Positions 14,946-30,769 are shown, numbered from the stretch's first letter. The stretch is 64,000 bases of DNA from Acetobacteraceae bacterium (GCA_965198755.1 OZ240673.1:3145044-3209043), one strand, 5' to 3'. Numbers and translations: made by a program. The notes: a model not told the origin generated them from the sequence alone.

Positions 14946-16439
14946 ATGAACGACCTCGCCGGCGTCGCCCAGGCCTTTCAGGACAGCCTGCCCCGCGGTG
15001 CCGAGGTGATCGTCTCGCGCATCGACAGCCTGGACCGCATCGGCGTCCCCGTGGTCCAGGCCGTGCTGCTGGGCCCCGACAGCCCTGCGCTGTCCGGCTA
15101 CGGCTACGGCGTGACCGAGCTGGAGGCACGCGTCGGCGCACTCGGCGAGCTGTGCGAGGAAGCCCATGTCGGCGCCACCATCGCCGCCGCCCCGCAGACC
15201 CTCGCCAGCTATGCAGCCCTGGCCGCGCGCCTGGGCGAACACGCGGTGCTCGACCCGCTGACGCTGTGCCTGCCGGCCGGCTCGGCCTACACGCCCGACA
15301 TGCCGCTCTCCTGGGTCGCCGGCCAGCGCTGGCCGGACGCAGCACCGGTGATGGTGCCGGCCGAGTGGGTGGCGGCGCACCCCTACCAGCTCGCCGCGCC
15401 GGCGCGGCTGATCACGCCCATCACCAACGGCCTGGGCGCCGGCTTCGACCTGCCACACGCTTTGGCGCACGCCTTGATGGAGCTGCTGCAGCGCGACGGC
15501 AACAGCCTCACCTACCGCGCGCTGGACCAGGGCGTGGTGGTCGACCTGCCGCAAGGCGCGCTCGGCGACGTCGACGACCTGCTGGCTCGCCTGCACGCGC
15601 TCGGCATCCGCCCGGTCGTCAAGCTGGCCGACACCAGCTTCGGACTCTCCAACCTCTATGTCATGGGCGATGATGACGGCCCGGCCCACTTCACCCTGCA
15701 GCTCAGCGCCTGCGGCGAGGCGTCCCATCCGGACCGCGCCCGGGCCCTGCGCAAGGCGCTGCTGGAATACATCGGCTCGCGCTCCCGCAAAGCGGCGACG
15801 CACGGTCCGGTGGAGACGGCGCGGCGCGTGCTGCCGCCGGCCTACCTGGCCCGCCTGCTCGCCGTCCCGCCGGCCGCCGAAGAGCCGCGCGCGCTGCAGG
15901 CGATGGCCGAGTGGCTGGGGCTGGACGCGGCAGCCTTGCGCCAGCTGCTGGCCGGCCCGGTGCAGCGCCGCACGCGCGGCATCTCGTTTGCCGACCTGCC
16001 CGACGCACCGGCGGCCGACGTCGCCACCTCCTCCGCCCGGCTCGACTATCTGGCGACCCGGCTGGCGGAAGCCGGGCTCGGCATCGTCTGGGTGGATTGC
16101 TCGCCGGCAGACGGGCCGGTGCGCGTGGTGCGCGCCATCGTGCCGGGACTGGAGAGCGAAACCATGAGCTACCACCGCCTCGGCCGGCGCGGGGTCGCCA
16201 GGCTGCGCGCCCGCCGCGACCCGCTGCTGCTCGACGCACCTCGCGACGGCGCCCTGCGCGTGCGCCTGCGCCCCGAGGACGAGGCAGCCTGCGGCGGGCC
16301 AGCCTGGTTCGACGCGGCACTCGCAGCACGGCTGACCGATCCGCTCTACCCGCTGTATCGTGAATGCGGGCCGTTCGCCGCACAGCGGCTGCTGGCCGGA
16401 AGCCGGCTTCATCGGGCGGATGCTGAAGCTGCGTGCTAG
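14946..16439 (+). CDS. YcaO-like protein (paralogue 1)
   Basis: LDRIGVP, GYG..E..EE, PITNGLGAG, HALMELLQRD, HPDRARALRKALLE, IVPGLE. Confidence 0.85.
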   Translation: MNDLAGVAQAFQDSLPRGAEVIVSRIDSLDRIGVPVVQAVLLGPDSPALSGYGYGVTELEARVGALGELCEEAHVGATIAAAPQTLASYAALAARLGEHAVLDPLTLCLPAGSAYTPDMPLSWVAGQRWPDAAPVMVPAEWVAAHPYQLAAPARLITPITNGLGAGFDLPHALAHALMELLQRDGNSLTYRALDQGVVVDLPQGALGDVDDLLARLHALGIRPVVKLADTSFGLSNLYVMGDDDGPAHFTLQLSACGEASHPDRARALRKALLEYIGSRSRKAATHGPVETARRVLPPAYLARLLAVPPAAEEPRALQAMAEWLGLDAAALRQLLAGPVQRRTRGISFADLPDAPAADVATSSARLDYLATRLAEAGLGIVWVDCSPADGPVRVVRAIVPGLESETMSYHRLGRRGVARLRARRDPLLLDAPRDGALRVRLRPEDEAACGGPAWFDAALAARLTDPLYPLYRECGPFAAQRLLAGSRLHRADAEAAC

Positions 16440-16620: not shown

Positions 16621-16678
16621 CTACTGAGGCGGCGGTCGCAATTGAGAGCGTCTTTCGACTTGCCCGCCCAGTGCACCC

Positions 16679-18445
16679 ATGTCGCGTGACGTTCTGAAGC
16701 GCCCGCCGGCGCACGGCCAGGATGGTGCGGACGGACATCGTCGGCATCGTTCAGCCCATCCGGGTGAGCGCGAACTGGCCGAGCGTGTGGGCTTGCGCCG
16801 GGCCGTGCTGCTTGCGCTGATGCTGGGGGTGGCCGCTTGCCTCGTCTGGCTGGGCGCCGCCGTGCTGGCCCCAGGCGGCTGGACCGCCCTGAAGCTGGCG
16901 CTGCTGCTGTGCCTGGCAGCAAACGCGCCGTGGCTGGGCCTGTCGGCGGCAACTGGGCTGATCGGCTTCTGCGTGCGCATCGGCGCGCGCGACTCCGCCT
17001 GCGCGGTGTTCCCGGCGCTGCGCCTGGTGCGGCCGGACCAGGCGGTCACGTTGCGGACCGCAATCGCCGTCTGCGTGCGCGACGAGGCGGTTGCACCCGT
17101 TTTCGCCAGGCTGGCGCAACTCGGCGCCGATATCGACCATGCCGGGCTGTCCGGCCGCTTCTCGCTGTGCGTGCTGTCCGACACCGCAAGCGACGCGCTG
17201 GCGGAGTCGGAGACCCGCGAAGCCGCTTGCCTGCGCGCTGCGTGCGCCACGCCCGTTCTGTACCGCCGGCGTGCGGCCAACACCGGCTTCAAGGCCGGCA
17301 ACGTGATGTCCTTCCTGGACGAGCACGCGGGCGCCTTCGACCTGCTGGTCTGCCTGGACGCCGACAGCGAGATGACCGCACCCGCCATCCTGCGCCTGGT
17401 GCGGGTGATGCAGGCCGACCCGCGTCTGGCCATCGTGCAGGCCACCTTCCACGGCCAGCCGGCCAGCGCCCTGTTCCCCCGCCTATTCCAGTTCGGCCAG
17501 TTGCAGGGCCTGCGCATCTGGGCGGTGGGGCAGGCCTGGTGGCAGGCCGATAGCGGCCCTTACTGGGGGCACAACGCCGTCGTCCGCGTGGCACCGTTCC
17601 GTGCGCATTGCCGGCTATCCCCGTTGCCGGACGGTGCGGCCATCATGTCGCACGACCACGTGGAGGCCGCGCTGCTGCAGGGTGCCGGCTGGCGCCTGCG
17701 CGTGCTGGCCTGCGACGAGGGCTCGTCCGAAGCCCAGCCGCCGACGCTGCCCGACTACCTCGTCCGCGACCGCCGCTGGGCCGCCGGCAACCTGCAGTAT
17801 CGCTTCCTGCTGCGCCGGCGCGAACTCGGCCGTCTGGGCCGGCTGCAGATGCTTCAGGCAATCCTGCACTATGCGCTGACGCCACTGTGGTTCGCGATGC
17901 TGCCGTTGGCGGCGTTAAACGCCGCCACTGGGGGCGCGGCCCAACTCCGCTGGGGGCGCCTGCTGACCCTGCTGGCGTTCGGCTGGCTGACGCTGCACGC
18001 GCCCAAGCTGCTCGGCATGCTGGAACTGCTGTTGCGCCCCGCGGTCGCCTCGCGTTTTGGCGGCCGGGCTTGCGTGTTGCGCCTGGCCGCGTCCGAGCTG
18101 GTGTTCGCCCAGCTGTTCGATCCCATCATCGCGCTGCACAAGACAGCCGGCGTGCTGCGCCTGGCCGCCGGAGCACCCGGCAGCTGGACCGGGCAGACCC
18201 GCGACGAGCACGCGATCGGCTGGTCGCGCGCTGCAGGGATGTTCTGGCCGCATACGTTGGCGGGCATCGCGCTCGCGGCGGTGTTCGCGGCCGCATCACC
18301 TGCGGCATTGCTGGTTTGTCTGCCGGCGGTGGCGGGATTGATGCTCGCCATACCGTTTGCGGTGTTTTCATCGAAGCAAAGCAAGGCTCTCTTTTTCGAA
18401 AAAAAGAAGCAAAAAACGTTTGGCCGCGCTGTCGCGGACGGCTGA
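16679..18445 (+). CDS. mdoH: Glucan biosynthesis glucosyltransferase MdoH/OpgH-type (GT2); C-terminus derived from element E9
   Basis: GFKAGN, LDADSEM, YWGHNA, SHDHVEA, RDRRWAAGNLQY. Confidence 0.88.
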   Translation: MSRDVLKRPPAHGQDGADGHRRHRSAHPGERELAERVGLRRAVLLALMLGVAACLVWLGAAVLAPGGWTALKLALLLCLAANAPWLGLSAATGLIGFCVRIGARDSACAVFPALRLVRPDQAVTLRTAIAVCVRDEAVAPVFARLAQLGADIDHAGLSGRFSLCVLSDTASDALAESETREAACLRAACATPVLYRRRAANTGFKAGNVMSFLDEHAGAFDLLVCLDADSEMTAPAILRLVRVMQADPRLAIVQATFHGQPASALFPRLFQFGQLQGLRIWAVGQAWWQADSGPYWGHNAVVRVAPFRAHCRLSPLPDGAAIMSHDHVEAALLQGAGWRLRVLACDEGSSEAQPPTLPDYLVRDRRWAAGNLQYRFLLRRRELGRLGRLQMLQAILHYALTPLWFAMLPLAALNAATGGAAQLRWGRLLTLLAFGWLTLHAPKLLGMLELLLRPAVASRFGGRACVLRLAASELVFAQLFDPIIALHKTAGVLRLAAGAPGSWTGQTRDEHAIGWSRAAGMFWPHTLAGIALAAVFAAASPAALLVCLPAVAGLMLAIPFAVFSSKQSKALFFEKKKQKTFGRAVADG

Positions 18446-18512
18446 GACAGCCCGCAACCCAGAGAACAAAAGTCTTTTGCTTCTTTTTTTTCAAAAAAGA
18501 AGGCCTTGCCTT
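18374..18512 (+). repeat. Palindromic element E9, overlapping the mdoH 3' end
   Basis: Two GAAGC-type arms; mdoH stop lies in the spacer. Confidence 0.95.
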
Positions 18513-18625
18513 ACTTTACTAGCGTTTCCGTGAGCGGCAGCCTCCCGGGTTTACACCGCGATGCCGAACCCCATGTGGCCCACACCCGGGCGGTCGGCGT
18601 CCGGGCGGGTTAGGGATGAAAACGC

Positions 18626-19831
18626 ATGCCGGATTTGGGCGTCAGCGAGTCCAACGCAGGACGCCGCCTTGGCGTGCTCGTGGTCGGCGTGGGCGGCGCG
18701 GTCGCCACCACGGCGGTCGCCGGCATCGAGCTACTACGCCGTGGGTCGAACGACTTCGCCGGACTGCCGTTGGCCGACGCCGACGTGCCTGGCCTAGCCG
18801 CCTACCGCAACATGCATTTCGCCGGCTGGGACCTCAACGCCGACGACCTGAGCCACGCAGCCCAGGGCCACCGGGTGCTGGAAGCCGAGCAGGCGAGCCT
18901 GGTGGCCGGCGAGCTCTCGCGCATCCGGCCGTGGCCCGCCGTCGGCAGCACCGATTTTTGCGCCAACGTGGACGGCGCCAACAAGGTGGTCGCCGGCAGC
19001 CACCGCGGCGCCGTCGAGCGCATCCGTCAGGACATCCGCGACTACAAGCAATCCACCGGCATCAGCGACGTGGTGATGATCAACCTCGCCTCCGTGGAAC
19101 GCTGGCCGGCCGACACCGCCGTGCTGGAGGAGGTCGAAGCCTTCGAGCGCGGGCTGGACGACAACAACCCCTCGATCAGCCCGGCGATGCTGTACGCCTA
19201 CGCGTCGATCACCGAGGGCGTGCCCTACGGCAACTTCACCCCGAGCCTGGCCGCCGACATCCCCGCGCTGGTCGCACTCTCCGCCGAGCGCAACGTGCCG
19301 GTAGCCGGCAAGGACGGCAAGACGGGGCAGACGTTCCTCAAGACCGTGCTGGCGCCAGCGCTGCGCGCGCGCTCGCTGTTCGTGGAAGGCTGGTTCAGCA
19401 CCAACATCCTTGGAAACCGCGACGGCCTGGCGCTGGACAACGCCGCCAGCCTGCAGAGCAAGCTCGCCACCAAGGGGTCCGTGCTGGACAACATCCTCGG
19501 CTACAAGGTGGAAAACCACCTGGTGAACATCCAGTACTACAAGCCGCGCGGCGACAACAAGGAAGCCTGGGACAACATCGACATCGTCGGCTTCCTCGGC
19601 CAGAAGATGCAGATCAAGCTGAACTTCCTTTGCCGCGACAGCATCCTGGCCGCCCCGCTGGTGATCGAGATCGCCCGTGTCCTGGACCTCGCACGCCGCC
19701 GCGGCCATGGCGGCATCCAGGAGCAGCTCGGCCTGTTCTTCAAGGCGCCGATGACGCCGGCCGGGTGTCGCGAGGAGCACTCCTTCCCCGTGCAGCAGCA
19801 GGTCCTGCTCGACTGGCTGGTGGCCGCCTAG
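18626..19831 (+). CDS. ino1: Inositol-3-phosphate synthase
   Basis: Rossmann VVGVGGAVA, NFTPS, GKDGKTGQT, NILGNRDG, DNKEAWD, RDSILAAPL. Confidence 0.95.
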   Translation: MPDLGVSESNAGRRLGVLVVGVGGAVATTAVAGIELLRRGSNDFAGLPLADADVPGLAAYRNMHFAGWDLNADDLSHAAQGHRVLEAEQASLVAGELSRIRPWPAVGSTDFCANVDGANKVVAGSHRGAVERIRQDIRDYKQSTGISDVVMINLASVERWPADTAVLEEVEAFERGLDDNNPSISPAMLYAYASITEGVPYGNFTPSLAADIPALVALSAERNVPVAGKDGKTGQTFLKTVLAPALRARSLFVEGWFSTNILGNRDGLALDNAASLQSKLATKGSVLDNILGYKVENHLVNIQYYKPRGDNKEAWDNIDIVGFLGQKMQIKLNFLCRDSILAAPLVIEIARVLDLARRRGHGGIQEQLGLFFKAPMTPAGCREEHSFPVQQQVLLDWLVAA

Positions 19832-19845
19832 GCGCGGTCCGGCCG

Positions 19846-20901
19846 ATGGACAGCCTGCCACCGGTACGGTCAGCGGAGCCCGCCGACCTTGCCGGGATTG
19901 CCTCGCTGGCGGCCGAGCTGGCGACGCTGAAGCGCATCCGCGACGCGCGATCCCCCGAAAGCCTCGCCTCGCTGATGTTTCGGCGCGCCTGGGTAGCGCT
20001 TTGTGCCGGTGTGGCGGTGCGCGACGTGGCGCTGTCCGTCTCCGCCGAGGCGCTGGTCGCGCTTCGCTTGGGCGGCATTGACCGTGCGGTGCTGGTCACG
20101 TCCGGGCTATCGGCCGACGAGGCAGCCGAGGTGCAGACGGCCTCGTTCGACCAGGTGACTGGGAGTATCCTGGCCGGCCAGGATAGGGGTGCGACGGCCG
20201 CCAGCCTGGTCGACGAACTGCGTCGGCGCGTCGGTGGTGAGCAGAGTCGACCCGTCGCTACCGAGCAAGTTCAGCGCGTCCACGCCGAGGACGATCGGCA
20301 TCTCGGCGCCGGGCAAGATCAGCGCGGCGGCGCCGAGCAAGCTGCAGCGGCCCCTGTACCCGCCTTTGTCGAAGCGCTGATCCGCCAGCCGCGCGCCGGC
20401 GCCACCTGCCCCGGCAAGCCGCGCCTGATCCTGGAGCCGCCGGAGGGCCACGGCGACCACTGCCTCGCCGTCGCCGTGCTGGGCGTCGTGCTGTGCGCCG
20501 AGTACGGCGCCGACCCCGCGCCCGTATTCCTCGCCGGCCTCGCTCACCACCTGCACAACGCCACCCTGCCCGACGCCGGGTTCGCCGGCGAGGTGCTGCT
20601 CGGCACCCACCTGATCCCGGTCCTGCGCCGCCTGACCGACCAGGCCCTGGCCACCCTGCCGGCCGGGCTTGCCGCCCACACGCGCGACGCGCTCGCCCTG
20701 GCGGCCGATGCCGGGACGCCGGAGGGGCGCGCCTTCAACGCCGCCGACGTGATCGACCGCATCATGGAGGTGCGCCACTTCGCCGCCGTCGCCGGCTTCA
20801 CCGAGGCGCAGGCGACTGACGACATGGAGCTGGTCCACGCCGGCCCGCTGCAGGATTTCCACTACCAGGTGATGCGCCGCGCAGGGCTGCTACCGGCGTG
20901 A
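19846..20901 (+). CDS. HD-fold (YfbR-like) phosphohydrolase-type protein, apparently duplicated domain
   Basis: QPRAG...EGHGDHCLAVAV...AGLAHHLHNA...FNAADVIDR resembles HD-domain His/Asp spacing; N-half ELATLKRIRDA looks like a degenerate copy. Confidence 0.55.
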   Translation: MDSLPPVRSAEPADLAGIASLAAELATLKRIRDARSPESLASLMFRRAWVALCAGVAVRDVALSVSAEALVALRLGGIDRAVLVTSGLSADEAAEVQTASFDQVTGSILAGQDRGATAASLVDELRRRVGGEQSRPVATEQVQRVHAEDDRHLGAGQDQRGGAEQAAAAPVPAFVEALIRQPRAGATCPGKPRLILEPPEGHGDHCLAVAVLGVVLCAEYGADPAPVFLAGLAHHLHNATLPDAGFAGEVLLGTHLIPVLRRLTDQALATLPAGLAAHTRDALALAADAGTPEGRAFNAADVIDRIMEVRHFAAVAGFTEAQATDDMELVHAGPLQDFHYQVMRRAGLLPA

Positions 20902-22214
20902 CCAGCCCGCCCCCAAACCTGCGCAGCCCGGCAACCGGCGCCGTGCTCACCGCCGGACCGCACGACCTGCACGCCGCCGGCGAGCGCTGGCCGGTGGTGG
21001 ACGGCATCGCCTTCCTGCGCGCCGACCGCCGCGCGCTGGCCGACGCGGCACTGGCCGCGCTGGATGCCGGCGACGCCGAGACCGCCTGTGTCATCCTGCT
21101 GGCGGACCAGGACGGCTGGGCCAGCACGCCACCGCCGGACGAAGCCGCCCGCCGCTTCGCGGTGCGCGAGCGCGCCGCGCTCAGCTTCCGCGCCGCCATG
21201 GATGTGCTGGCGTTCGGGCCGGTGGCCACCTACTTCGCGCACCGCTGGTCCGACCCCACCTTCCTCTCCGGCCTGGCTTTGGCCGAGGCGCACTGGCACG
21301 CGCCGGACCGCATCGTCGAGCTGGCCTGCGGTGCCGGCCACTACCTGCGCGAGTTCGCCCGCGTGCGGCCGCAGGCCGAGATCACCGGCGGCGACCTGGT
21401 GTTCGCCAAGCTGTGGCTGGCGCGGCACTTCGTGGCACCGCAGGCAAAGCTGCTGTGCTTCGACGCGGCGCAGCCCTGGCCGTTACCGGACGCGTCGGCT
21501 GACCTCGTGTTCTGCCACGATGCTTTCTATTTTCTGCCGGATAAGCAGCGTGTGGCGGGGGAGATGCTGCGGGTGGCCGGCGGGCAGGAAGCAAGCGCTT
21601 CTTTTTCGAGAAAAAGAAGCAAAAAGCTTTTGTCTCGGCTATCGCGGACGGCTGAAACGACACGCCTTCCCAACGCGCACCCCCAGGAGCAAAAGTTTTT
21701 TGGTTCTTTTTTTCAAAAAAGAACTGCTTGCCTTGCTTCCGGCCGCATCCTCGTCGGACACGCCCACAACGCCGCCGTGGAAAACCTTTCCCACGGCGCG
21801 CCCCTGCTCCCCGAAGACTACGCAGCGCTATTTGGGCAGGCATTGCTGTACGACGACCGCGAACTGACCACCGCGCTCGCCGAAGCACGCGCCCCGCACC
21901 CGGCAGACGCCGCCAACCTGCAACAGGCGCCAGCCGTGGCGCTGGCGGCCGGTGCGGCTGCAGCCGACGTGCCACGCATGCTGACCGGCGGGCTGGCGAT
22001 GCCGCAGCCGGGGCGGCAGCTGATGCGCAACCCGCTCTATGCCGAAGGCGCGGGCACGTTGCGCTTCCCCTCGCCGCGCTACGAGGCGGAATATGCGTCC
22101 CTGGCCACCTATCGCCCAACCACCGACGCGCCCGCCCGCGCAGTGGCCGGCGACCCGGCGCTGGAGGGCGCCATCCGCCGGCGCGAGCTTCTCGACCTGC
22201 CGGCCGAATGGTGA
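20898..22214 (+). CDS. Class I SAM-dependent methyltransferase with Trm112-like N-terminus and a 52-aa in-frame element insertion
   Basis: LRSPATG...WPVVDGIAFL N-terminus; VELACGAGH motif I; GDL; FCHDAFYF; GTGA overlap with the upstream gene. Confidence 0.85.
   Translation: MTSPPPNLRSPATGAVLTAGPHDLHAAGERWPVVDGIAFLRADRRALADAALAALDAGDAETACVILLADQDGWASTPPPDEAARRFAVRERAALSFRAAMDVLAFGPVATYFAHRWSDPTFLSGLALAEAHWHAPDRIVELACGAGHYLREFARVRPQAEITGGDLVFAKLWLARHFVAPQAKLLCFDAAQPWPLPDASADLVFCHDAFYFLPDKQRVAGEMLRVAGGQEASASFSRKRSKKLLSRLSRTAETTRLPNAHPQEQKFFGSFFQKRTACLASGRILVGHAHNAAVENLSHGAPLLPEDYAALFGQALLYDDRELTTALAEARAPHPADAANLQQAPAVALAAGAAAADVPRMLTGGLAMPQPGRQLMRNPLYAEGAGTLRFPSPRYEAEYASLATYRPTTDAPARAVAGDPALEGAIRRRELLDLPAEW
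21587..21740 (+). repeat. Palindromic element E10, inserted in frame within the methyltransferase
   Basis: Terminal GGAAGCAAG...CTTGCTTCC; reading frame stays open across it. Confidence 0.95.
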
Positions 22215-23281
22215 GCACCGGCGCGCGCCTGGGCTGGGGCATTGCCGGGTGCGGCTGGGTGGCGCGCGACTACGCGGTGCCGGCCATCCGCAAGTCCTCC
22301 AACGGCACCCTGCTGGCGGTGCACGACCAATCCGACGCGGCGCTGGACCGGGCACGGCGGGAATTGGTCGGTGTCGCCTGCCACGCCAGCCTGGACGACT
22401 TTCTGGCTACGCCCGGCCTGCAGGCGGTCTACGTCGCCACGCCCAACCACGCCCACCGCGCGCTGGCCGAACGCGTCGCCGCCGCCGGCCTCGCCGTGCT
22501 GTGCGAGAAGCCGATGGCCACCACGCTGGCGGAGGCTACCCGCATGGTGCGTGCCTGCACCGATGCCGGGGTGCGCTACGCCACCGCCTTCGACCAGCGC
22601 TTCCACCCGGCGCATCGCCACCTGGCGCGCCTGGTGGCGGACGGCGCCATCGGGCGGCCGACCGCCATCCGCATCGTCTACGCCTGCTGGGTGGACGATT
22701 GTTGGGCGCCCGACGCGGTGAGCACCGACAACTGGCGCACCGACCCGGAGCGTGCCGGCGGCGGCGCGCTGTTCGACCTGGCGCCGCACGGGCTGGACCT
22801 CGCCGCGATGATCCTGGGCGAGCGCATCGAGGCCGTCGCCGCCATGGGCCAGTCGCGCGTGCACGGCTACGCCTCGCGCGGGGTGGAGGGGCGCGGCGTG
22901 GAAGATGGGGCGCTGCTGATGGCGCGCTCGGCCTCCGGCGTGCTGCTGCAGATGCACGTGGCCTACAACTGCCCGGAGACGCTGCCGCGCCGCCGGCTGG
23001 AAGTGCTGGGAACGGCGGGGCAGATCGTCGCTACGGACACGATGGGGCAGACGCCGGGCGGCACTTTGGTTTTAACGGATGCGGCGGACGGCGTGGCCCG
23101 TCAGGTGGACGTGCCGGACGCGGAGCGGGCGCCGTTTCTCGGCCAGATGGAGGCGTTTGCCGCCTGCGTGCTGGAGGGTGCGGCGTTTGCGTTCACACCG
23201 GAGCATGATTTGCACACGATGGCGCTTCTGGAGCGTGCGCAGGCAATGGTGGTGGCGACGTTAAAGCGACTGTTTGTCTGA
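22208..23281 (+). CDS. Gfo/Idh/MocA family NAD(P)-dependent oxidoreductase
   Basis: GIAGCGWVA, VATPNHAH, CEKPMA, GGGALFDLAPHGLD. Confidence 0.93.
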   Translation: MVSTGARLGWGIAGCGWVARDYAVPAIRKSSNGTLLAVHDQSDAALDRARRELVGVACHASLDDFLATPGLQAVYVATPNHAHRALAERVAAAGLAVLCEKPMATTLAEATRMVRACTDAGVRYATAFDQRFHPAHRHLARLVADGAIGRPTAIRIVYACWVDDCWAPDAVSTDNWRTDPERAGGGALFDLAPHGLDLAAMILGERIEAVAAMGQSRVHGYASRGVEGRGVEDGALLMARSASGVLLQMHVAYNCPETLPRRRLEVLGTAGQIVATDTMGQTPGGTLVLTDAADGVARQVDVPDAERAPFLGQMEAFAACVLEGAAFAFTPEHDLHTMALLERAQAMVVATLKRLFV

Positions 23282-23393
23282 AACAAAAGAAACAATGCCA
23301 CGTTCACTCCAAAATCCGGCAATCCAGTCCGTCGACTTGCGAGTCATGCTGATGACCTCCGGGCCATCCGCCGGCTTCTCAAGTGACGCCCGT

Positions 23394-23498
23394 AAAGAAA
23401 GCTATTGGTGGCGCTATCGCGGAGTTTCCGGCAGCGCGCGCCCAAGAGAACAAAAGTTTTTTGGTTCTTTTTTTCAAAAAAGAACCGCTTGCTTCCTT
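23394..23498 (+). repeat. Palindromic element E11 (left arm eroded)
   Basis: CTATCGCGGAGTTTCC spacer + intact GAACC arm. Confidence 0.85.
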
Positions 23499-23509
23499 CG
23501 GGTCAGTTC

Positions 23510-24334
23510 ATGCCCCTAACCCCCTTTGCCTGCAGCAACTGCGGCCACTGGCAGCGCTACTTCGCCACCCCGCCGCTCTGCCCTATCTGTTCCGACGTGC
23601 GCAACGATTTGCCGGAGGACGGCTGGGACTTTCGCACGCCGGAGCAGCTGATCCCCACGTTGCAGTTCCACTGGCGCGAGGCGATCCCCGGCGTGTGGGA
23701 GTTCTGGTCCACGCCGCGGTTCGGCCTGGACAGCCACGGCTGGCTGCTGTTGCACGAGTTGGGCAACGTCGCGTTCGAGGCAGCGCCGATCTACAACGAT
23801 GCCCAACTGGCGCAGATACGCGCGCTCGGCGGCATACGGTTTCTGGCGGCGTCGCATCCGCACGGTTACGGCGCGCTGTTCCAGTTGCAGGAGGTGTTCC
23901 AGCCGGAAGCGTTGCTGATCCAGAAGGACGACCTGGACTGGACCAAGGCGTTCCGGGTGACGCTGCCTTACGACGAGACGTTCGAGATCTATACAGGCCT
24001 GACCTTGCACCACGTTGGCGGCCACTATGCCGGGCAGGCGGTGTTGCACGACGCGGAGCGGCGCGCGGTGTTCGCCGGCGACAGCCTGAAGATCGATTTC
24101 GATGCGGCGGGCGAGGCGCAAGGCATTTCCTGCCACAAGGCTTACCACAAGCAGATCCCGCTCTCGCGCGACGAGGCGCGCCGTTACCGCAGCGTCTACG
24201 AGCGGCTGGACTTCACGTCGGTGTTCACCCCGTTCGAGATGGCGACCGACACCGGCACGGCGGCCGCAGTAGCGCTGCTCGACCAGGTGATCGAAGGCCC
24301 GCCGTCCACCAAGCCGATCCCGATCCGCCGATGA
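23510..24334 (+). CDS. MBL-fold metallo-hydrolase-like protein with N-terminal CxxC...CxxC Zn-ribbon
   Basis: CSNCG...CPICSD; ASHPHGYG; GGHYAG; FAGDS. Confidence 0.75.
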   Translation: MPLTPFACSNCGHWQRYFATPPLCPICSDVRNDLPEDGWDFRTPEQLIPTLQFHWREAIPGVWEFWSTPRFGLDSHGWLLLHELGNVAFEAAPIYNDAQLAQIRALGGIRFLAASHPHGYGALFQLQEVFQPEALLIQKDDLDWTKAFRVTLPYDETFEIYTGLTLHHVGGHYAGQAVLHDAERRAVFAGDSLKIDFDAAGEAQGISCHKAYHKQIPLSRDEARRYRSVYERLDFTSVFTPFEMATDTGTAAAVALLDQVIEGPPSTKPIPIRR

Positions 24335-25824
24335 CCCGCGCGATGCCCGAGGCCGCCCGCGCCTACCTCGATTCCATGCCGGCGGGGAGCGTGGACCTGT
24401 TCCCGCTGACCCCGCTGGACCGCACCGGCGTGCCCTGCTGGAACGCGGTGTTCCACGACGCGGCCGCGCAGGCCTGGGTGGGCGTCGCACCGCATGGCGT
24501 CGGCTACGGCAGCACCGACGATGAGGCGATCGTGGGGACCACCGGCGAGCTGGCCGAGGCCATCCACTCGGCGGCGGGCATCTGGCGGCTGGAGCGGCGG
24601 CGGGGCAGCACCACGGACCTGGTGCGCAGCCTGGGTGCCGACGCGGTGGCCGACCCGCTGACCCTGTGCCTGCCGGCCGGGTGCGCGGTGGATGCGGACA
24701 CCGCGCTGGAGTGGGTGCCGACGCGCCGCTACCGCGATGGCGCGACGGTCTGGCTGCCGATCGACATCGCGGCGTGTTCCTACGGCGACCTCTCGCCCGG
24801 CTACACGGCGTTCACCAGCCCGATCACCAACGGGCTGGGTGCAGGGCCGAGCCTGGACTTCGCCATCGGCCACGGGTTGTGCGAGCTGTTCCAGCGCGAC
24901 GGCAACGGGCTGGGCTTCCGCGCCATGGACCGCGGCATCCTGCTGGAGTTCGGCCCCGATTTTCCGCGCGACCCGCGCACCCGCGCGCTGCTGGCGCATC
25001 TGCGCAGTCTGGGCATCGAGGTGCTGGCCAAGTTCGCCGACGACGCGTTCGGCATCGCCAACGTCTACTGCGTCGGCGGCGAGACGGACCGGTCTGCCGC
25101 AGCACCCATCATGGTCACCGCCGCCGGCGAGGCCGCCTCGCCCGACCGCGAGCACGCGCTGCGCAAGGCGGTGCTGGAGTTCGCCGCCGCGCGCGCCCGC
25201 AAGGCGTTCAGCCACGGCGCGCTGGCCGAAGCCGCCCGCGTGGCGCCGGCGCGCTACCTCGAAAGTTTCCGCGCCCGCCAGACGCTGGACGGCGAGGAGG
25301 ACCGCACGATGGCGGCGATGCGCGACTGGCTCGGCCGCGACCAGGCCAGCCTGCGCGCCCTGCTGGCAGACAGCGCGCTGTCCCGCCGCGAGACCAAGCG
25401 CTTCGACGAGCTGCCGCAATGGGACGGCGCACTGTCCGGCACAGCGCTGGTAGCCGAACTGCACCGCCGCCTGGCCGCGCACGGGATGGACGTGCTGGTG
25501 CTGGACTACTCCCCGCCGGACCACCCGGACGTGCACGTGGTGAAAGTGGTGGTGCCAGGGCTGGAGGTAGAGACGATGAGCTATCACCGCATCGGCGAGC
25601 GTGGCGTGCGCAAGCTGCTGGACCGCGGATCGGACCTGGTGGGTTTCGGCCCGCCGCCGCCGGGCGCGCTGCCGGTGCGCCTGCCCGCCGGTGCGGCCGA
25701 GCGGCTGGGCGGCGTGCCGTGGCTCGACGTGGCCGGGGTGGACCGCATCGTGGGCCCGCTCTACCCGCTCTACCGCGAGCCCGAGGTGCACGCGGCGCAG
25801 ATTGCCCTGGAGGCGGTAGCGTGA
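24331..25824 (+). CDS. YcaO-like protein (paralogue 2)
   Basis: LDRTGVP, GVGYG, PITNGLGAG, HGLCELFQRD, RKAVLE, VVPGLE; ATGA overlap with the MBL gene. Confidence 0.85.
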   Translation: MTRAMPEAARAYLDSMPAGSVDLFPLTPLDRTGVPCWNAVFHDAAAQAWVGVAPHGVGYGSTDDEAIVGTTGELAEAIHSAAGIWRLERRRGSTTDLVRSLGADAVADPLTLCLPAGCAVDADTALEWVPTRRYRDGATVWLPIDIAACSYGDLSPGYTAFTSPITNGLGAGPSLDFAIGHGLCELFQRDGNGLGFRAMDRGILLEFGPDFPRDPRTRALLAHLRSLGIEVLAKFADDAFGIANVYCVGGETDRSAAAPIMVTAAGEAASPDREHALRKAVLEFAAARARKAFSHGALAEAARVAPARYLESFRARQTLDGEEDRTMAAMRDWLGRDQASLRALLADSALSRRETKRFDELPQWDGALSGTALVAELHRRLAAHGMDVLVLDYSPPDHPDVHVVKVVVPGLEVETMSYHRIGERGVRKLLDRGSDLVGFGPPPPGALPVRLPAGAAERLGGVPWLDVAGVDRIVGPLYPLYREPEVHAAQIALEAVA

Positions 25825-25854
25825 GGTTCGCCCGGCGGCCCGTGTTGACGAGTA

Positions 25855-25992
25855 GCAAGCAAGGCAAGCAGTTCTTTTTTGAAAAAAAGAACCAAAAAAC
25901 TTTTGTTCCCTTGGGTGCGCGTTGCAGGAAACTCCGCGACAGCAGGGATAAAAGTTTTTTGCTGCTTTTTTTCAAAAAAGCAGGCCTTCCCT
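25855..25992 (-). repeat. Palindromic element E12
   Basis: Full copy; right arm has compensatory GCTGC/GCAG variant. Confidence 0.95.
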
Positions 25993-26137
25993 TTCTTCTA
26001 GAGCATCAACCAACCTTACGGGGCTGCCCGTCGGATGCAGATGCTCGTCAACGGAGGGCGCTGCCGCGTTTTCCGGTCTGCTTGTCCAATTCAACGAGGT
26101 CAGAAAACACTCTAGCGTGTCGGCTTGCCGCGGAGGC

Positions 26138-26962
26138 ATGGGCTTGAGGTTCGCCTACAACACCAACGGCACCGCCAACCACCGGCTGGACGAGGCGATC
26201 GCGCTGATCGCCGACGCCGGCTACGACGGCGTGGCGCTGACTCTCGACATCCACCACCTCGACCCGTTCGCGGGCTTTCGCGCCGAGCTGCGCCGCGTCG
26301 CCGCTCTTCTGCGCGCCCATAGCCTAGGCTGCGTCATCGAGACCGGCGCGCGCTTCCTGCTCGACCCGCGGCAAAAGCACGAGCCTACCCTGGTGACCGC
26401 GGACAGTGAGGGCCGCGCGCGCCGCGTGGCTTTCCTGACCCGCGCGCTGGAAGCGGCCGCTGAGACCGGCGCCGAGGCGATGTCTTTCTGGGCCGGCGTG
26501 CCGAAACCGGGCGTGACCGCGGCGCAGGCGCGCGATTGGGTGGCCGAGGGCGCGGCCGAAATTGCCCGGCGTGCCGAACAGCTCGGGACTGTCGCCGCGC
26601 TTGAGCCGGAACCGGGCATGGCGATCGAGACCGCGGCAGACTGGCAGGCGCTGGCGATCCCCGGCCTGCGCCTGGCGCTGGACACCGGGCACTGCCTGGT
26701 CACCGGCGAGATGGACCCCGCGGACGCGGTGCGCCAGTACGCAAGCGACCTCGGCACCGTGTCGATCGAGGACATGGCGCGCGGCGTGCACGTGCATTTG
26801 CCGTTCGGCGAGGGGGACATGGACCTGCCTGGCGTGCTCGCGGCGTTGCATGAGGTGCGCTTCACCGGCCTGGTCTGCGTGGAGCTGTCGCGGGAGAGCC
26901 ACCGGGCGGACACGATGGTGCCGGGTGCGTTGGCGTGGCTGCGGGATCGGGTGGCGTCCTGA
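26138..26962 (+). CDS. Sugar phosphate isomerase/epimerase (AP endonuclease 2 TIM barrel)
   Basis: GGAGG RBS; AYNTNG, LEPEPGM, LDTGH, IEDM, HLPFGEGD, VELSR. Confidence 0.9.
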   Translation: MGLRFAYNTNGTANHRLDEAIALIADAGYDGVALTLDIHHLDPFAGFRAELRRVAALLRAHSLGCVIETGARFLLDPRQKHEPTLVTADSEGRARRVAFLTRALEAAAETGAEAMSFWAGVPKPGVTAAQARDWVAEGAAEIARRAEQLGTVAALEPEPGMAIETAADWQALAIPGLRLALDTGHCLVTGEMDPADAVRQYASDLGTVSIEDMARGVHVHLPFGEGDMDLPGVLAALHEVRFTGLVCVELSRESHRADTMVPGALAWLRDRVAS

Positions 26963-26966
26963 TGCG

Positions 26967-27100
26967 AAGCAAGACCTTCTTTTCTGAAGAAAAGAAGCAA
27001 AAGACTTTTGCTTCCGCTGTCGCGGACTCTCCCACGAGCGCGCGGCAGCGGAAACAAAAGTTTTTTGGTTCTTTTTTTCAAAAAAGAACTGCTTGCCTGC
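26967..27100 (+). repeat. Palindromic element E13
   Basis: Full copy between the TIM-barrel and GT4 genes. Confidence 0.95.
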
Positions 27101-27104
27101 CTTC

Positions 27105-28322
27105 ATGAGGATCTGTTTCGTCAGCCGCCGCTACTTCCCGGCGATCTCCGGCATGAGCGTCTACGCGCAGAACCTGCTCCGCGAACTCGCCAGCGCCGGC
27201 CACGACGTAACGATGATCAGCCAATACCGCGGCGACGATTACGGCCGCGCCGTCTACGGCGGCGGCCCGCCCCCCGCGGTGCCCGGCGTGCGCGTCTTCG
27301 GCCTGGAGCAGCTCGGCGAGCAGTCGACCGGCGACTTCGAGCGTGACGTCGCCGTGATGGTGGAGGCGATCTGCGCCGAACACACGCGCGCGCCGTTCGA
27401 CGTGCTGCACGCGCAATACGGCTACCCGACCGGCTGGGCGGTCATGCTGGCGGCCCGGCGGCTGGGGCTGCCGAGCGTGGTCTCCATCCAGGGCGGCGAC
27501 GGGCACTGGGTGGGCTCGTGTTGCGAGACGCACCGCCTGGCGATGATACGCGTGCTGGACCACGCGGGCGCGGTGCTGATCGGCTGCCGCTCGTTTGCAG
27601 AGGAGGTGTGCGGGCGGCTGGGCACCGATCCTGGACGCTTCACCATCGTGCCGGGCGCGGTGGAGACCGACCGATTCACCCCGGCCGCCCGGCCGGTGGG
27701 CGCCGCGCCGGTGCTGCTGTATCACGGCCGGATCGACGCGCGGAAAGGTGCGCTGGACCTGCTGGACGCGGCCAGGCTGCTCGCCGACGAGGGCGCGGCC
27801 TTTTCACTGGTGTATTCGGGCATCGGCCCGGATCACGGGCGCGTCGCGGCGCGCATCACCGAACTGGGCCTGGGCGGGCGCGTGCGGATGACCGGCTACG
27901 TCAACTACGCGGACGTGCCGGCGGTGTATCACCAGGCGGACGTGTTCGTTTCGCCCACCTATGCCGAGGGGTTCTCCAACACCATCCTCGAAGCGATGGC
28001 ATCCGGCCTGGCCTGCGTCTCCTGCCGCGTCGTGGGCGTCATGGACTGCCTGCGGGACGGCGAGAACGGGCTGCTGAACGAGCCGGGCGACATACCCGCC
28101 TTGGCCGCCTCGCTGCGCCGGCTGCTGGCTGAGCCGGACCTGCGGCGCCGGCTGGCGCAGGCGGGGCTGGAGGAGTGCCGGCGCCTCTACTCGTGGCCGG
28201 CGGTCGGGCGGCAGATCATGCAGGTCTACGCCGACACGGTGCGGCGAGCGCCGGACCTGGGCTTCTCCACCGAGCTGCCGATGACGCCGTGCCGTTTCCG
28301 GGCGGACCCGCACCTCCTGTGA
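27105..28322 (+). CDS. GT4 family glycosyltransferase
   Basis: HAQYG, GRIDARKG, EGFSNTILEAMASG. Confidence 0.93.
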   Translation: MRICFVSRRYFPAISGMSVYAQNLLRELASAGHDVTMISQYRGDDYGRAVYGGGPPPAVPGVRVFGLEQLGEQSTGDFERDVAVMVEAICAEHTRAPFDVLHAQYGYPTGWAVMLAARRLGLPSVVSIQGGDGHWVGSCCETHRLAMIRVLDHAGAVLIGCRSFAEEVCGRLGTDPGRFTIVPGAVETDRFTPAARPVGAAPVLLYHGRIDARKGALDLLDAARLLADEGAAFSLVYSGIGPDHGRVAARITELGLGGRVRMTGYVNYADVPAVYHQADVFVSPTYAEGFSNTILEAMASGLACVSCRVVGVMDCLRDGENGLLNEPGDIPALAASLRRLLAEPDLRRRLAQAGLEECRRLYSWPAVGRQIMQVYADTVRRAPDLGFSTELPMTPCRFRADPHLL

Positions 28323-29071
28323 CGCGCACGGCGCTGTTCCTCTCGCCGCACCTGGACGACGTAGTGTTTTCCTGCGGCGGCCTGGCCGCGGTGCTGCACG
28401 ACCGCGGCTGGCGCACGGTGCTGGCGACCGCGTTCACCGCGACCGTGACGCCCGTCACCGGCTTCGCGCTCGCCTGCCAGCTCGACAAGGGGTTGCCCGC
28501 GGAGACCGATTACATGGCCCTGCGCCGCGCCGAAGACCACGCGGCCGCGGCCATCCTTGGGTTCACCGACGTGCGCCACCTCGGCCTGCCCGAAGCACCG
28601 CATCGTGGTTACGACAGCGCGCGCGCCCTGTTCGGCGGCGTCCGCGACGACGACATCATCGTGCAGGCGCTCGCGGCACACCTGACGGCGCTGCAAAGCG
28701 AATTCGCGCCGAACCTTGTGCTGGCTCCACAGGGTTTGGGCAGCCACGTCGACCACCGGCAGGTGGTGCGCGCAATCACCGAAACGGTGGACGCGCCGCT
28801 CGCCTGGTACCGCGACACGCCTTACGCGATGCGCCACCAGGACGCGCCGCCGCCGCACGTGGCTCGGCTTGCGGAGATGCGGTTTCCGGTCGGCAGCGCG
28901 TTGGACCGCAAGCTGCGTGCCGCCTGCGCCTACGTCAGCCAAGTCGGTTTCCAGTTCGGCGGGCCCGAACAGACACAAACCGCATTGCGCGCGTTCGCTG
29001 CCGCTGAAGCCGGAGGTGGCGGGTTTGCAGAACGACTGGCCGTGTCGGTCGGGGCGGACGGTTCACTTTGA
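28319..29071 (+). CDS. PIG-L family deacetylase
   Basis: SPHLDDVVFSCGG, RRAED, SHVDH; GTGA overlap with GT4. Confidence 0.92.
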   Translation: MTRTALFLSPHLDDVVFSCGGLAAVLHDRGWRTVLATAFTATVTPVTGFALACQLDKGLPAETDYMALRRAEDHAAAAILGFTDVRHLGLPEAPHRGYDSARALFGGVRDDDIIVQALAAHLTALQSEFAPNLVLAPQGLGSHVDHRQVVRAITETVDAPLAWYRDTPYAMRHQDAPPPHVARLAEMRFPVGSALDRKLRAACAYVSQVGFQFGGPEQTQTALRAFAAAEAGGGGFAERLAVSVGADGSL

Positions 29072-29108: not shown

Positions 29109-29156
29109 AGCAAGGTAAGCAGTTCTTTTTTGAAAAAAAGAACCAAAAAACTTTTG
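29109..29156 (-). repeat. Palindromic element half copy E14a (GAACC arm)
   Basis: gcaaggtaagcagttcttttttgaaaaaaagaaccaaaaaacttttg. Confidence 0.85.
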
Positions 29157-29308
29157 CTCCCGTACAGTGCGTGCTGATGGAAAGGTGTCGTTTAATCAGT
29201 GGCGGCGCGCACGTGCGCATTTGGCGCGCACGCAGATCTCTAATGCTTTGCAGCATGGTGTAGCAGCGGCGCAGGTCTGACCTTGCAAGTGCAGCAAACG
29301 CAATGCCT

Positions 29309-29415
29309 GCATAAAAACGTCTGTCCCTGCTGTCGCGCTAGCTCCAACAACGCGCACCTGAGGGAACAAAAGTTTTTTGGTTCTTTTTCTCAAAAAAGAA
29401 CCGCTTGCCTTGCTT
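29309..29415 (+). repeat. Palindromic element E14b (left arm eroded)
   Basis: CTGTCGCG + intact GAACC arm. Confidence 0.85.
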
Positions 29416-29445
29416 GTCACCGGTCGCGATCTCGCCCCACTGACG

Positions 29446-29832
29446 TCAGGCGACGACACGCGCCAGCATTGGCCCCAGCGGCCCCCCGCCGAAGATATGG
29501 ACGTGGAAGTGCGGCACCTCCTGATGTGCATCGTGTCCCATGTTGGCCAGGATGCGGTAGCCTGGGTCTTCAAGCCCCAGGTCGCGCGCGACCGCAGCGA
29601 CCGCGCGGAAGAAGCCCGCAACCGTTTCAGGCGGCGCATGCGCGGCGAAGTCCGCCAGCGACACGTGCCGTGTCTTCGGGATCACCAGCACGTGCACCGG
29701 CGCCTGCGGGTTGATGTCGTGGAACGCGAGCGCGTGCTCGTCCTCATACACACGCCGGCTCGGGATTTCGCCGCGCAGGATGCGCGCGAAGATGTTGGAG
29801 TCGTCGTAAGGACCTAGACCCGGGACAGGCAT
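29446..29832 (-). CDS. hinT: Histidine triad (HIT) nucleotide-binding protein
   Basis: NIFARILRGEIP, DINPQAPVHVLVIPK, QEVPHFHVHIFGG. Confidence 0.95.
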   Translation of the reverse strand: MPVPGLGPYDDSNIFARILRGEIPSRRVYEDEHALAFHDINPQAPVHVLVIPKTRHVSLADFAAHAPPETVAGFFRAVAAVARDLGLEDPGYRILANMGHDAHQEVPHFHVHIFGGGPLGPMLARVVA

Positions 29833-29923
29833 TGCTCAGCTCCTACAGGGACCATTACAAATCTTCTTTTGCACGCTTGGGCCTTAGAGTGCGGGCCGGC
29901 TTTGACTCGCTTTCGGACAAGAG

Positions 29924-30075
29924 AAAGCAAGGCAAGCAGTTCTTTTTGAAAAAAAGAACCAAAAAACTTTTGTTCCCTTGGGGCGCGCGTTGGTGAGACG
30001 TGTCGTTTCAGCCGCCCGCGACAACCGGGACAAAAGCTTTTTGCTTCTTTTTCTCGAAAAAGAAGGCCTTGCTTC
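29924..30075 (-). repeat. Palindromic element E15
   Basis: Full copy, CGTGTCGTTTCAGCC spacer. Confidence 0.95.
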
Positions 30076-30110
30076 TACTCGCTAAAAAACAACCAAGCAT
30101 GCCCAGGCTC

Positions 30111-30692
30111 TCACCTGCACGCGCTCAACGGCCACACGTCCACTGCAAGCCAGTGCAACCGTGACTCTGCCTCCAACCGCGTTCCGTGCAGCGCGAACAC
30201 CACCACGCAGCCCACCAGCAGAACCCACGGCGACGCCGGCCGCGCCTGCCTTACTCCCGCCAGGCGTCGCATCAGCACCGCGCCGGCCACGCCGACGACG
30301 GCGCCGATCAGCACGTCGCCCACCGTGTGCACGTGGAGCATCAGCCGCGTCAGCCCCACCACCGCCGCGAACGCCCCGCCCAGGCAGGCCGCCACCAGCG
30401 TGCCGGCGGTCGAGCGCGTTGCCAGCAGCGCGAGCAGCCCGCCGTACACCACGGCGGCCGTGGCCGTGTGGCCGCTTGGGCTGACCACGCCCGTCCAGGC
30501 CAGCTGCGACGCGCAGGCAAAGGCCACCAGCTTCAGCACCAGCATGACGCCCAGCACGCCGGCGACGGCAGCCCCCCAGGCCAGCGCGCCGCGTCGCCAG
30601 CCCAGCCCGGCCAGCACCAGCAGCACGTAGGCGGCCAACGGCAGGACCACCGCTTGGTCGGCAAAATCCGTCAGGAACTGCACCTGCTTCAC
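30111..30692 (-). CDS. PAP2 family membrane phosphatase
   Basis: SPSGH, TRLMLHVHTVGDV. Confidence 0.85.
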   Translation of the reverse strand: MKQVQFLTDFADQAVVLPLAAYVLLVLAGLGWRRGALAWGAAVAGVLGVMLVLKLVAFACASQLAWTGVVSPSGHTATAAVVYGGLLALLATRSTAGTLVAACLGGAFAAVVGLTRLMLHVHTVGDVLIGAVVGVAGAVLMRRLAGVRQARPASPWVLLVGCVVVFALHGTRLEAESRLHWLAVDVWPLSACR

Positions 30693-30769
30693 AGCGCGGC
30701 AGGTTGCCGGTAACCGCCCGATCCCCCAGGGTGCGGCCGGTTAACGCCTACGCGCAGTGGAGACCACCT

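Follow-up and report, generated by a model that had tools for sequence, protein, structure and literature searches.

A conserved operon of Acetobacteraceae combining inositol, aminosugar and YcaO genes, possibly for a tailored hexosaminyl-cyclitol

A 64,000-nucleotide stretch of the genome of an Acetobacteraceae bacterium (GCA_965198755.1 OZ240673.1:3145044-3209043; the whole stretch is called the window below) contains, at positions 18626-29071, an operon that runs from the start of an ino1 gene to the stop codon of a PIG-L gene. Its nine genes, all on the plus strand according to third-position GC (GC3) and Pfam data, form a single conserved and translationally coupled unit, of which a YcaO gene and the gene of its metallo-beta-lactamase (MBL)-fold zinc-ribbon partner are integral members. 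We give about even chances to the reading that the operon encodes cytoplasmic enzymes which build a tailored hexosaminyl-cyclitol, a pseudodisaccharide of the glucosamine (GlcN)-inositol type. That YcaO and the MBL-fold protein act on a non-peptide carbohydrate or cyclitol substrate is a more tentative proposal, which we hold to be possible but rather doubtful. The operon is apparently undescribed so far, and no description of it was found in the literature on YcaO enzymes or on myo-inositol-1-phosphate synthases (MIPS) of Acetobacteraceae and lichens.

Gene content and layout of the operon

Since the window has a G+C content of about 68%, genes were called from GC3 frames, and the calls were checked with Pfam and NCBIfam; domain scans took in 35 window proteins. 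The nine genes of the operon are as follows.

18626..19831, plus strand: Ino1/MIPS, myo-inositol-1-phosphate synthase (PF07994, 206.7 bits; PF01658, 109.4 bits)
19846..20901, plus strand: HD-like protein (Pfam HD at E 0.006 only; fold from AlphaFold2 (AF2) model and Foldseek)
20898..22214, plus strand: S-adenosylmethionine-dependent class I methyltransferase (MT; PF08241, 46.4 bits; PF13649, 43.5 bits)
22208..23281, plus strand: Gfo/Idh/MocA NAD(P) oxidoreductase (GFO; PF01408, PF22725, PF02894)
23510..24334, plus strand: MBL-fold protein with an N-terminal CxxC...CxxC zinc ribbon (AF2 and Foldseek)
24331..25824, plus strand: YcaO2, 'type A', the in-operon YcaO (PF02624, 177.6 bits)
26138..26962, plus strand: xylose-isomerase-like TIM barrel (AP_endonuc_2; PF01261, 122.8 bits)
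27105..28322, plus strand: GT4, retaining GT-B glycosyltransferase (PF00534, 117 bits; PF13579, 84 bits)
28319..29071, plus strand: PIG-L/LmbE metal-dependent de-N-acetylase (PF02585, 62.1 bits)

Start and stop codons overlap at the HD/MT, MT/GFO, MBL/YcaO2 (ATGA) and GT4/PIG-L junctions. No transmembrane segments were found in the nine proteins. A preliminary description of this region, made from the sequence, had placed Ino1, GT4, HD-fold, PIG-L and YcaO genes here in an alphaproteobacterium. All five were recovered on the plus strand by GC3, Pfam and the fold model, and the closest relatives of the window organism are lichen-associated Acetobacteraceae metagenome-assembled genomes (MAGs). 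Four further conserved genes, for the methyltransferase, the Gfo/Idh/MocA protein, the MBL-fold protein and the TIM barrel, were added by the present analysis. The rest of the window, as scanned, is chromosomal housekeeping sequence (LeuRS, Kup K+ transporter, isocitrate lyase and others).

Conservation and distribution

Species-representative genomes were scanned with a YcaO2 profile, which gave at least 549 genome stretches coding for a related protein; the best 80 of these were kept as loci. Acetobacteraceae or Rhodospirillales account for nearly all YcaO2-anchored loci. Lichen MAGs are frequent among them, and the cultured Acidisphaera sp. L21 supplies one. All named genomes among the 80 loci are of alphaproteobacteria from lichen, soil or crust. 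Searches by tblastn with the window proteins gave the colinear order Ino1-HD-MT-GFO-(MBL)-YcaO-TIM-GT4-PIG-L across loci, with the MBL gene being optional. The core set of seven genes (HD, MT, GFO, YcaO, TIM, GT4 and PIG-L) was complete in all 51 YcaO-anchored genome loci with enough flanking sequence. The HD-like gene in metagenome contigs served as an independent second anchor and yielded 30 loci, 27 of which held all seven genes. Ino1 was present in 51/51 YcaO-anchored and 26/30 HD-anchored loci, the methyltransferase in 51/51 YcaO-anchored loci, and YcaO in 29/30 HD-anchored loci in addition to the 51/51 for which it was the anchor. The MBL gene was found in about 60% of loci (31/51 and 17/30, respectively).

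Compact nine-gene versions of the operon also exist, for example in L006 and L081. According to the gene lists, its genes overlap tightly in Acidisphaera L21, Belnapia sp. F-4-1 and two MAGs, where the flanks are unrelated. An Acuticoccus genome (Hyphomicrobiales) holds the operon, which is therefore not limited to one family. The gene set stays together despite protein identities of 43-60%, changes in the position of YcaO, complete replacement of the flanks and a distribution over two orders of Alphaproteobacteria. Co-location of the operon genes is far beyond chance. Cultured carriers are available in Belnapia (sp. F-4-1), Acidisphaera (sp. L21), Roseicella (R. aquatilis) and Paracraurococcus (P. 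lichenis).

Predicted functions of the cyclitol and aminosugar enzymes

Ino1 matched the generic MIPS Pfam domains strongly and the actinobacterial equivalog TIGR03450 with 26.6 bits (cut-off 638). Judged by these scores, it is a clear MIPS and not one of the actinobacterial type.

The best PDB relatives of GT4 were sucrose-phosphate synthase (SPS; 6kih), MshA (7qsg/3c4q) and BshA (5d00), followed by PimA. The first three, all retaining enzymes, use small soluble molecules as glycosyl acceptors. The predicted acceptor of GT4 is a cyclitol or cyclitol phosphate. The protein scored 79.8 bits with the MshA model TIGR03449 (cut-off 462.5) and 76.5 bits with BshA (cut-off 273.7), and it carries a family-specific invariant motif, QGGDGHWxGxCCxxH. 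The zinc motifs of PIG-L, SPHLDD and HVDH, are kept across 72 sequences; its score with BshB1 was 28.9 bits (cut-off 182.5). Because all named equivalogs score far below their cut-offs, substrates can be assigned at the superfamily level only.

For the HD-like protein, no Pfam or NCBIfam family reached its threshold, and PDB searches with the single sequence and with a profile gave nothing useful. The AF2 model (pLDDT 81.5) has an extra N-terminal helical domain and a C-terminal HD-type half. The best Foldseek matches of the latter were 1xx7 (TMt 0.71, probability 1.0), HDDC2 (4dmb), 3kh1 and OxsA (5tk7), and the predicted structure was thereby confirmed as a YfbR/HDDC2-type HD phosphohydrolase fold. 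A MIOX-like oxygenase was considered and rejected, as the matches were YfbR, HDDC2 and OxsA phosphohydrolases with no MIOX among them. Residues H202, D204, H205, H234, H235, H237, N238, D243, D301 and D304 are invariant. This protein is a candidate for the MshA2-type phosphatase, which has never been identified in mycothiol synthesis. In the lineage of the window it carries about 45 extra residues around positions ~138-166 (nt ~20257-20345), a low-complexity segment with low model confidence and an atypical GC3 frame signal, missing from most orthologues (about 300 aa).

The three remaining enzymes would be tailoring enzymes. The methyltransferase has a conserved N-terminal extension, and a PDB sequence search returned no relative of it. 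The closest PDB relative of GFO was 1,5-anhydro-D-fructose reductase (4koa/2glx, 131 bits), with inositol dehydrogenases next at about 69 bits; its score with IolG TIGR04380, 109 bits, was under the cut-off. The substrate of GFO is probably a keto-sugar or an inosose. The TIM barrel keeps its metal-site pattern in conserved E/D/H/E-type motifs (EPEPGM, DTGH, HxHLPFGEGDMD, VELSRESH). Its named matches were weak (IolO, 23.9 bits; 3lmz as the sole PDB match), and it may be an isomerase, epimerase or eliminase.

YcaO enzymes and the MBL-fold partner

YcaO enzymes are known as ATP-dependent activators of peptide backbone amides. YcaO2 matched PF02624 end to end (positions 2-325 of 325), and its motifs GELAEA, TNGLGAG, ELxQRDG, GEAAS and ALRKA, acidic and Arg motifs included, are invariant in 21 sequences. 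The sole PDB sequence relative was Methanocaldococcus jannaschii YcaO MJ1094, a weak match; it is an archaeal thioamide-forming YcaO that works without TfuA. NCBIfam matches were to SagD-type and McrA-thioamidation YcaOs (TIGR03266).

A second YcaO gene and a glucosyltransferase gene lie upstream of the operon:

14946..16439, plus strand: YcaO1, 'type B' YcaO (PF02624, 168.1 bits)
16679..18445, plus strand: OpgH/MdoH-like membrane GT2 glucosyltransferase (NCBIfam NF003962, 405.8 bits, cut-off 328)

YcaO1 is 43% identical to YcaO2 and 58-62% identical to the YcaO of the Belnapia operon (62%) and of four further loci (L121, L132, L134 and L136). Among the 80 YcaO2-anchored loci it was found in L001 only (91%), and the matches of about 40-46% in other loci arise from YcaO2 as cross-hits. 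The operon comes with YcaO genes of three subtypes, at different positions. Type A, that of YcaO2, lies between GFO/MBL and TIM; type B lies inside the Belnapia operon, whereas in L121, L132, L134 and L136 it comes last, behind a GalE-like epimerase gene that itself follows PIG-L; type C shares about 45% identity with each of the YcaO1 and YcaO2 types. The window holds two of the types, A and B, and its YcaO1-GT2 pair resembles the Belnapia genes (YcaO 62%, GT2 57%). As three subtypes serve one operon, YcaO1 and YcaO2 are lineage variants, not two subunits. The 'YcaO pair' of the preliminary description is thus to be abandoned: YcaO1 was rejected as a second subunit, being a paralogous lineage variant that is missing from other loci. 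Its gene lies outside the interval of the operon. The subtype and position of YcaO vary between lineages, and the gene is kept in all loci but L142.

The MBL-fold protein encoded directly upstream of YcaO2 is the candidate for the true YcaO partner. Its AF2 model (pLDDT 92.4) matched 2p97 (TMt 0.82) and many other MBLs in Foldseek, and its motif is SHPHGYG where other MBLs have HxHxDH. When 1.84 billion representative proteins were searched exhaustively with a profile, 159 clusters were obtained at E <= 1e-30. MBL::YcaO fusions occurred in at least six of them (P0380, P0387, P0400, P0414, P0451, P0463), and P0387 (830 aa) has seven full-length members on separate contigs. The MBL::YcaO fusion is robust. 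A PIG-L::YcaO fusion was seen once only, in Acuticoccus sp. (WP_420391781.1), and GFO::YcaO and YcaO::TIM fusions once each. The PIG-L::YcaO fusion fits a YcaO acting on the amide or amine handled by PIG-L. The earlier placement of YcaO in the pathway thus stands as regards its membership in the operon and its fit to an amide or amine role, while the partner appears to be the MBL-fold protein and not a second YcaO.

OpgH-like glucosyltransferase and variant loci

In 69/92 loci, PIG-L and an OpgH-like GT2 gene directly 3' of it share a strand and lie a median of about 160 nt apart; in 22/92 loci no GT2 is nearby. In the window and L001 it is upstream rather than downstream of the operon. The window GT2 has hydrophobic segments and is 57% identical to the GT2 that closes the Belnapia operon, and the GT2 of Acidisphaera passes the NCBIfam MdoH cut-off with 608.8 bits. 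A GalE or short-chain dehydrogenase/reductase (SDR) epimerase gene follows PIG-L in about 10 loci.

Two singleton loci depart from the usual gene content. Locus L166 (6556-14609) encodes a dehydroquinate synthase (DHQS)-like cyclase (NF004852, 464 bits), HD-like, GFO, MBL::YcaO, GT4 and PIG-L proteins, and is without Ino1, methyltransferase and TIM barrel; insertion sequence (IS) elements lie on its flanks, and it is the only such locus among 166. It suggests that the cyclitol source is exchangeable, with the downstream chemistry retained. Locus L142 (8859-14877) has Ino1-HD-MT-GFO-MBL followed directly by a PALP-fold pyridoxal phosphate (PLP) enzyme and lacks YcaO, TIM, GT4 and PIG-L. It suggests a two-module architecture, with a cyclitol module and an aminosugar/YcaO module.

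Proposed pathway and product

In the proposed pathway, with each step predicted from family homology, Ino1 would convert glucose-6-phosphate to inositol-3-phosphate. The cyclitol or its phosphate would then receive an N-acetylhexosamine that GT4 takes from a UDP-sugar, the HD-fold protein would remove the phosphate, and PIG-L would take off the N-acetyl group and free the amine. With GFO and the TIM barrel, a ring carbon may be oxidised and also isomerised or epimerised, as in IolG/IolI or in pairs of 3-keto-glycoside dehydrogenase and eliminase, and the methyltransferase would add an O- or N-methyl group.

The step assigned to MBL and YcaO is speculative. It might be an ATP-driven O-phosphorylation of a tetrahedral adduct on a small molecule, and two targets may be considered. 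One is the sugar acetamide, which would be converted to an amidine, thioamide or cyclic imidate; for the non-peptide proposal, the acetamide of N-acetylglucosamine (GlcNAc) in the hexosaminyl-inositol is a possibility. The other is an adduct of the freed amine or of ammonia with a carbonyl or amide, and ATP-driven joining of an amine to an inosose or amide through a C=N bond could possibly replace the missing aminotransferase. No aminotransferase was found in the loci read, where the PALP-fold protein of L142 is the sole PLP enzyme. Either route would produce a C=N or C=S bond.

Since the nine proteins are soluble and a GT2 gene usually comes after the operon, the product might be a soluble solute made against stress, or it might prime or decorate periplasmic glucan. 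The linkage of the operon to a glucan synthase of the OpgH type suggests that it functions in the cell envelope or in withstanding desiccation or osmotic stress. If the proposal is true, this YcaO would be the first to act on a small molecule, and the operon would define a new class of aminocyclitol glycosides, widespread in Acetobacteraceae of lichens and soil crusts. A YcaO fixed in a sugar/cyclitol operon that has no peptide gene, next to a new MBL-fold partner, may point to the first non-peptide substrate of this enzyme family.

Evaluation of alternative explanations

Several observations weigh against this reading of the operon. All named equivalogs (MshA, BshA, BshB1, mycothiol Ino1, IolG) lie far under their cut-offs, and with the MshA structures only the C-terminal donor domain of GT4 could be aligned, the acceptor domain being unalignable. 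The phosphatase role of the HD-like protein is uncertain on two counts: its 'HD' dyad is an invariant H237-N238 instead of H-D, and the gene is kept in L166, where there would be no cyclitol phosphate to remove. The DHQS, PALP, PIG-L::YcaO, GFO::YcaO and YcaO::TIM variants are all singletons, and the singleton fusions could be frameshift merges of the assembly. Sequencing runs containing the region have a flat gene depth and look like DNA metagenomes, not transcripts. As for the substrate of YcaO, to our knowledge all members characterised so far act on peptide or protein backbones, and a non-peptide substrate would be unprecedented. This habit of the family is also the general ground for the alternative that YcaO modifies a peptide or protein backbone here, as in RiPPs (peptides made on the ribosome and modified after translation), with the sugar and inositol genes decorating the product or merely being co-regulated. 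The SagD-type and McrA-thioamidation matches agree with it, as does an acidic open reading frame (ORF) of 65-75 aa, which precedes Ino1 by 200-550 nt, with the same orientation, in 58 of the 123 loci that hold Ino1 (consensus M..DEAI.AAKRVAESEGL...HGGDHSV...DMRD; e.g. L048:4497-4703, L055:5289-5510, L024:4873-5097). This ORF, however, is limited to one subclade and is therefore no universal precursor peptide: it is missing in the window, L001, L003, L006 and Acidisphaera, and in 65/123 Ino1 loci overall, and the compact operons have no room for a precursor gene. Downstream small-ORF matches were rejected as precursor peptides, being antisense to the GT2 gene. No Pfam domain of an E1-like/Ocin-ThiF partner or TfuA was present among the neighbours in the loci read, nor were a dehydrogenase, a protease or a transporter found there, and YcaO is fused with MBL and PIG-L enzymes but with no peptide-recognition domain. 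A peptide or protein product is thus distinctly improbable. We give practically no credence to the view that the genes are neighbours by chance or shared ancestry without forming a functional unit. It could draw on the miniature inverted-repeat transposable element (MITE)-like elements that split the window genes into blocks; the synteny statistics refute it, the gene set being kept through divergence, flank turnover and two orders, and domain fusions join members of the operon.

Two further alternatives accept the operon as a unit and differ in the product. The preliminary description had proposed a mycothiol- or bacillithiol-like low-molecular-weight thiol, with YcaO in place of the Cys ligase, and part of its logic is borne out: the order Ino1/GT4/HD/PIG-L mimics the first four steps with MshA, MshA2 and MshB, GT4 is close to SPS, and MshA and BshA are among its five best PDB relatives. 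YcaO uses ATP as MshC does, and its closest solved relative, MJ1094, is a thioamide former. The absence of an MshC/BshC-like gene, which had been reported, was also confirmed for the operon, about 130 related loci and the 35 window proteins scanned, and no MshD acetyltransferase was present in the operon, in related loci with Pfam-listed genes or among the same 35 proteins. The thiol itself found no support. GNAT, cysteine desulfurase, rhodanese, sulfur carrier and TfuA genes were not found in about 130 loci any more than the Cys ligase was; known YcaO chemistry activates amide carbonyls and not amino-acid carboxylates; and a thioamide, if made, is not a thiol. The equivalog scores fail here as well, and a mycothiol-like scheme has no use for the four additional tailoring genes. 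We regard a thiol product as very improbable. An envelope product, either a glycosylphosphatidylinositol (GPI)-like glycolipid with GlcN-(phosphatidyl)inositol or an inositol glycoside that primes or caps an OpgH-like periplasmic glucan, is unlikely, with evidence on both sides. The making of GPI anchors by PIG-A and PIG-L likewise combines GT4, PIG-L and inositol. The PDB relatives of GT4 include PimA, a GalE-like epimerase occurs in about 10 loci, and the OpgH/MdoH-like GT2, directly downstream in most loci, is retained upstream in the window after rearrangement. On the other hand, neither a CDP-alcohol phosphatidyltransferase (phosphatidylinositol synthase) nor OpgG was found in the loci read, the nine operon proteins have no transmembrane segments, and nearly a quarter of the loci (22/92) have no GT2 nearby.

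Repeat elements and other features of the window

A MITE/REP-like element of about 150 nt occurs at about 40 sites of the window, in nearly every intergenic region. It has AT-rich terminal inverted repeats with the core GTTCTTTTTTGAAAAAAGAAC. Over the 64 kb it gave 75 strand matches, where 0.03 were expected, and it folds into a long hairpin (z = -3.96). Examples of copies are given below.

13506-13762, MITE-like copy
16469-16633, MITE-like copy
18375-18526, MITE-like copy
21585-21748, MITE-like copy
23413-23509, MITE-like copy
25858-26007, MITE-like copy
26963-27113, MITE-like copy
29109-29161, MITE-like copy
29329-29425, MITE-like copy
29926-30089, MITE-like copy

In metagenome contigs the word depth of the element is 10,000-35,000, compared to 50-100 for genes, which implies hundreds of copies; contigs end at these elements. 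They cut the operon into blocks, and the gene order is unchanged. The copy at 21585-21748 lies in frame within the methyltransferase gene and adds about 49 aa with no stop codon. Both terminal hairpins are present, and the GC3 signal collapses there. By alignment, the insertion is found in the window and the related MAG L001 only, all other orthologues being without it. It recalls the palindromic elements in ORFs of Rickettsia.

A tRNA-Met (CAT) gene at 13615-13689 lies between two half-copies of the repeat, and a small cupin gene (13948-14421) is just downstream. The following 14422-14945, about 520 nt 5' of YcaO1, had no coding signal and no Rfam match. This segment could be a promoter or leader, or what is left of a rearrangement by which a YcaO-GT2 pair of the Belnapia type came to lie upstream of the type A operon. 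After PIG-L, positions 29446-32419 encode a HIT-family protein (minus strand), a PAP2 phosphatase (minus strand) and an AMP-binding ligase (plus strand). They are found in the window and L001 only and are outside the conserved unit. In the segment 8835-10764, a gene for a ScfR-type regulator with HTH, M78 peptidase and ScfRs domains adjoins an isocitrate-lyase-family gene (6683-8557), and a MazF/PemK toxin gene is located at 10390-10764.

Comparison with known systems

With the mycothiol pathway of Actinobacteria (Ino1, MshA, MshA2, MshB, MshC, MshD) the operon shares a MIPS, a GT4, a phosphatase-type protein and a PIG-L/LmbE deacetylase. It differs in having no MshC or MshD, in that Ino1, GT4 and PIG-L are not equivalogs of the mycothiol enzymes, and in its extra YcaO, MBL, methyltransferase, Gfo/Idh/MocA and TIM-barrel genes. 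In Actinobacteria the msh genes are dispersed, in contrast to the single operon here. Compared to bacillithiol synthesis, the BshA and BshB1 cut-offs were not reached, and there is no BshC-like gene.

Membership of YcaO2 in its superfamily is borne out by a full-length domain and conserved ATP/Mg-type motifs. Known YcaOs comprise azoline cyclodehydratases, TfuA-associated or stand-alone thioamide formers (McrA Gly) and amidine formers (bottromycin). Unlike these systems, the operon has no peptide gene and no E1-like or TfuA partner, and combines an MBL zinc-ribbon partner with a carbohydrate/cyclitol setting.

The pairing of a Gfo/Idh/MocA protein with an AP_endonuc_2 TIM barrel is the same as in IolG/IolI, LgdA/LgdB and DgpA/DgpBC, and the family-level matches of GFO were IolG, levoglucosan dehydrogenase and DgpA. 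In contrast to such pairs, the scores are under the equivalog cut-offs, and the operon setting is biosynthetic, not catabolic. The neighbouring GT2 passes the MdoH cut-offs both in the window and in Acidisphaera. It is shorter (560-614 aa) than in OpgH systems, and OpgG/OpgD are not adjacent; a linkage of osmoregulated periplasmic glucan (OPG) systems to an inositol-aminosugar operon is not described.

Aminoglycoside biosynthesis provides a close comparison as well. N-acetylparomamine is converted to paromamine by the PIG-L-family deacetylases KanN/BtrD/NeoL, and the corresponding GT4 enzymes, which form it from 2-deoxystreptamine (2-DOS) and UDP-GlcNAc, are KanF/BtrM/NeoD; pathways to myo-inositol-derived aminocyclitols are related cases. 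In the assembly of the aminoglycoside pseudodisaccharide, the GT4 KanF transfers GlcNAc to 2-DOS (PMC5461906). The operon likewise has a dedicated cyclase (MIPS, or the DHQS-like enzyme in L166), a GT4 that would transfer GlcNAc and a PIG-L for de-N-acetylation. Aminoglycoside pathways typically include methyltransferases and a cyclitol dehydrogenase of the Gfo/Idh/MocA type, and 2-DOS synthesis starts with a DHQS-like cyclase, as might the pathway of L166. In contrast to aminoglycoside clusters, the operon has no aminotransferase, second glycosyltransferase, resistance gene or export gene; YcaO and the MBL-fold protein have no counterpart in those clusters; and the operon shows vertical conservation amid chromosomal housekeeping genes, whereas aminoglycoside clusters are sporadic. 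On the evidence of the protein families, its first steps are equally like those of mycothiol synthesis and of aminoglycoside pseudodisaccharide assembly, and it is a member of neither group. The methyltransferase, GFO, MBL and TIM-barrel genes, together with the DHQS-like variant of L166, point to cyclitol tailoring of the aminoglycoside-pseudodisaccharide type rather than to a redox thiol.

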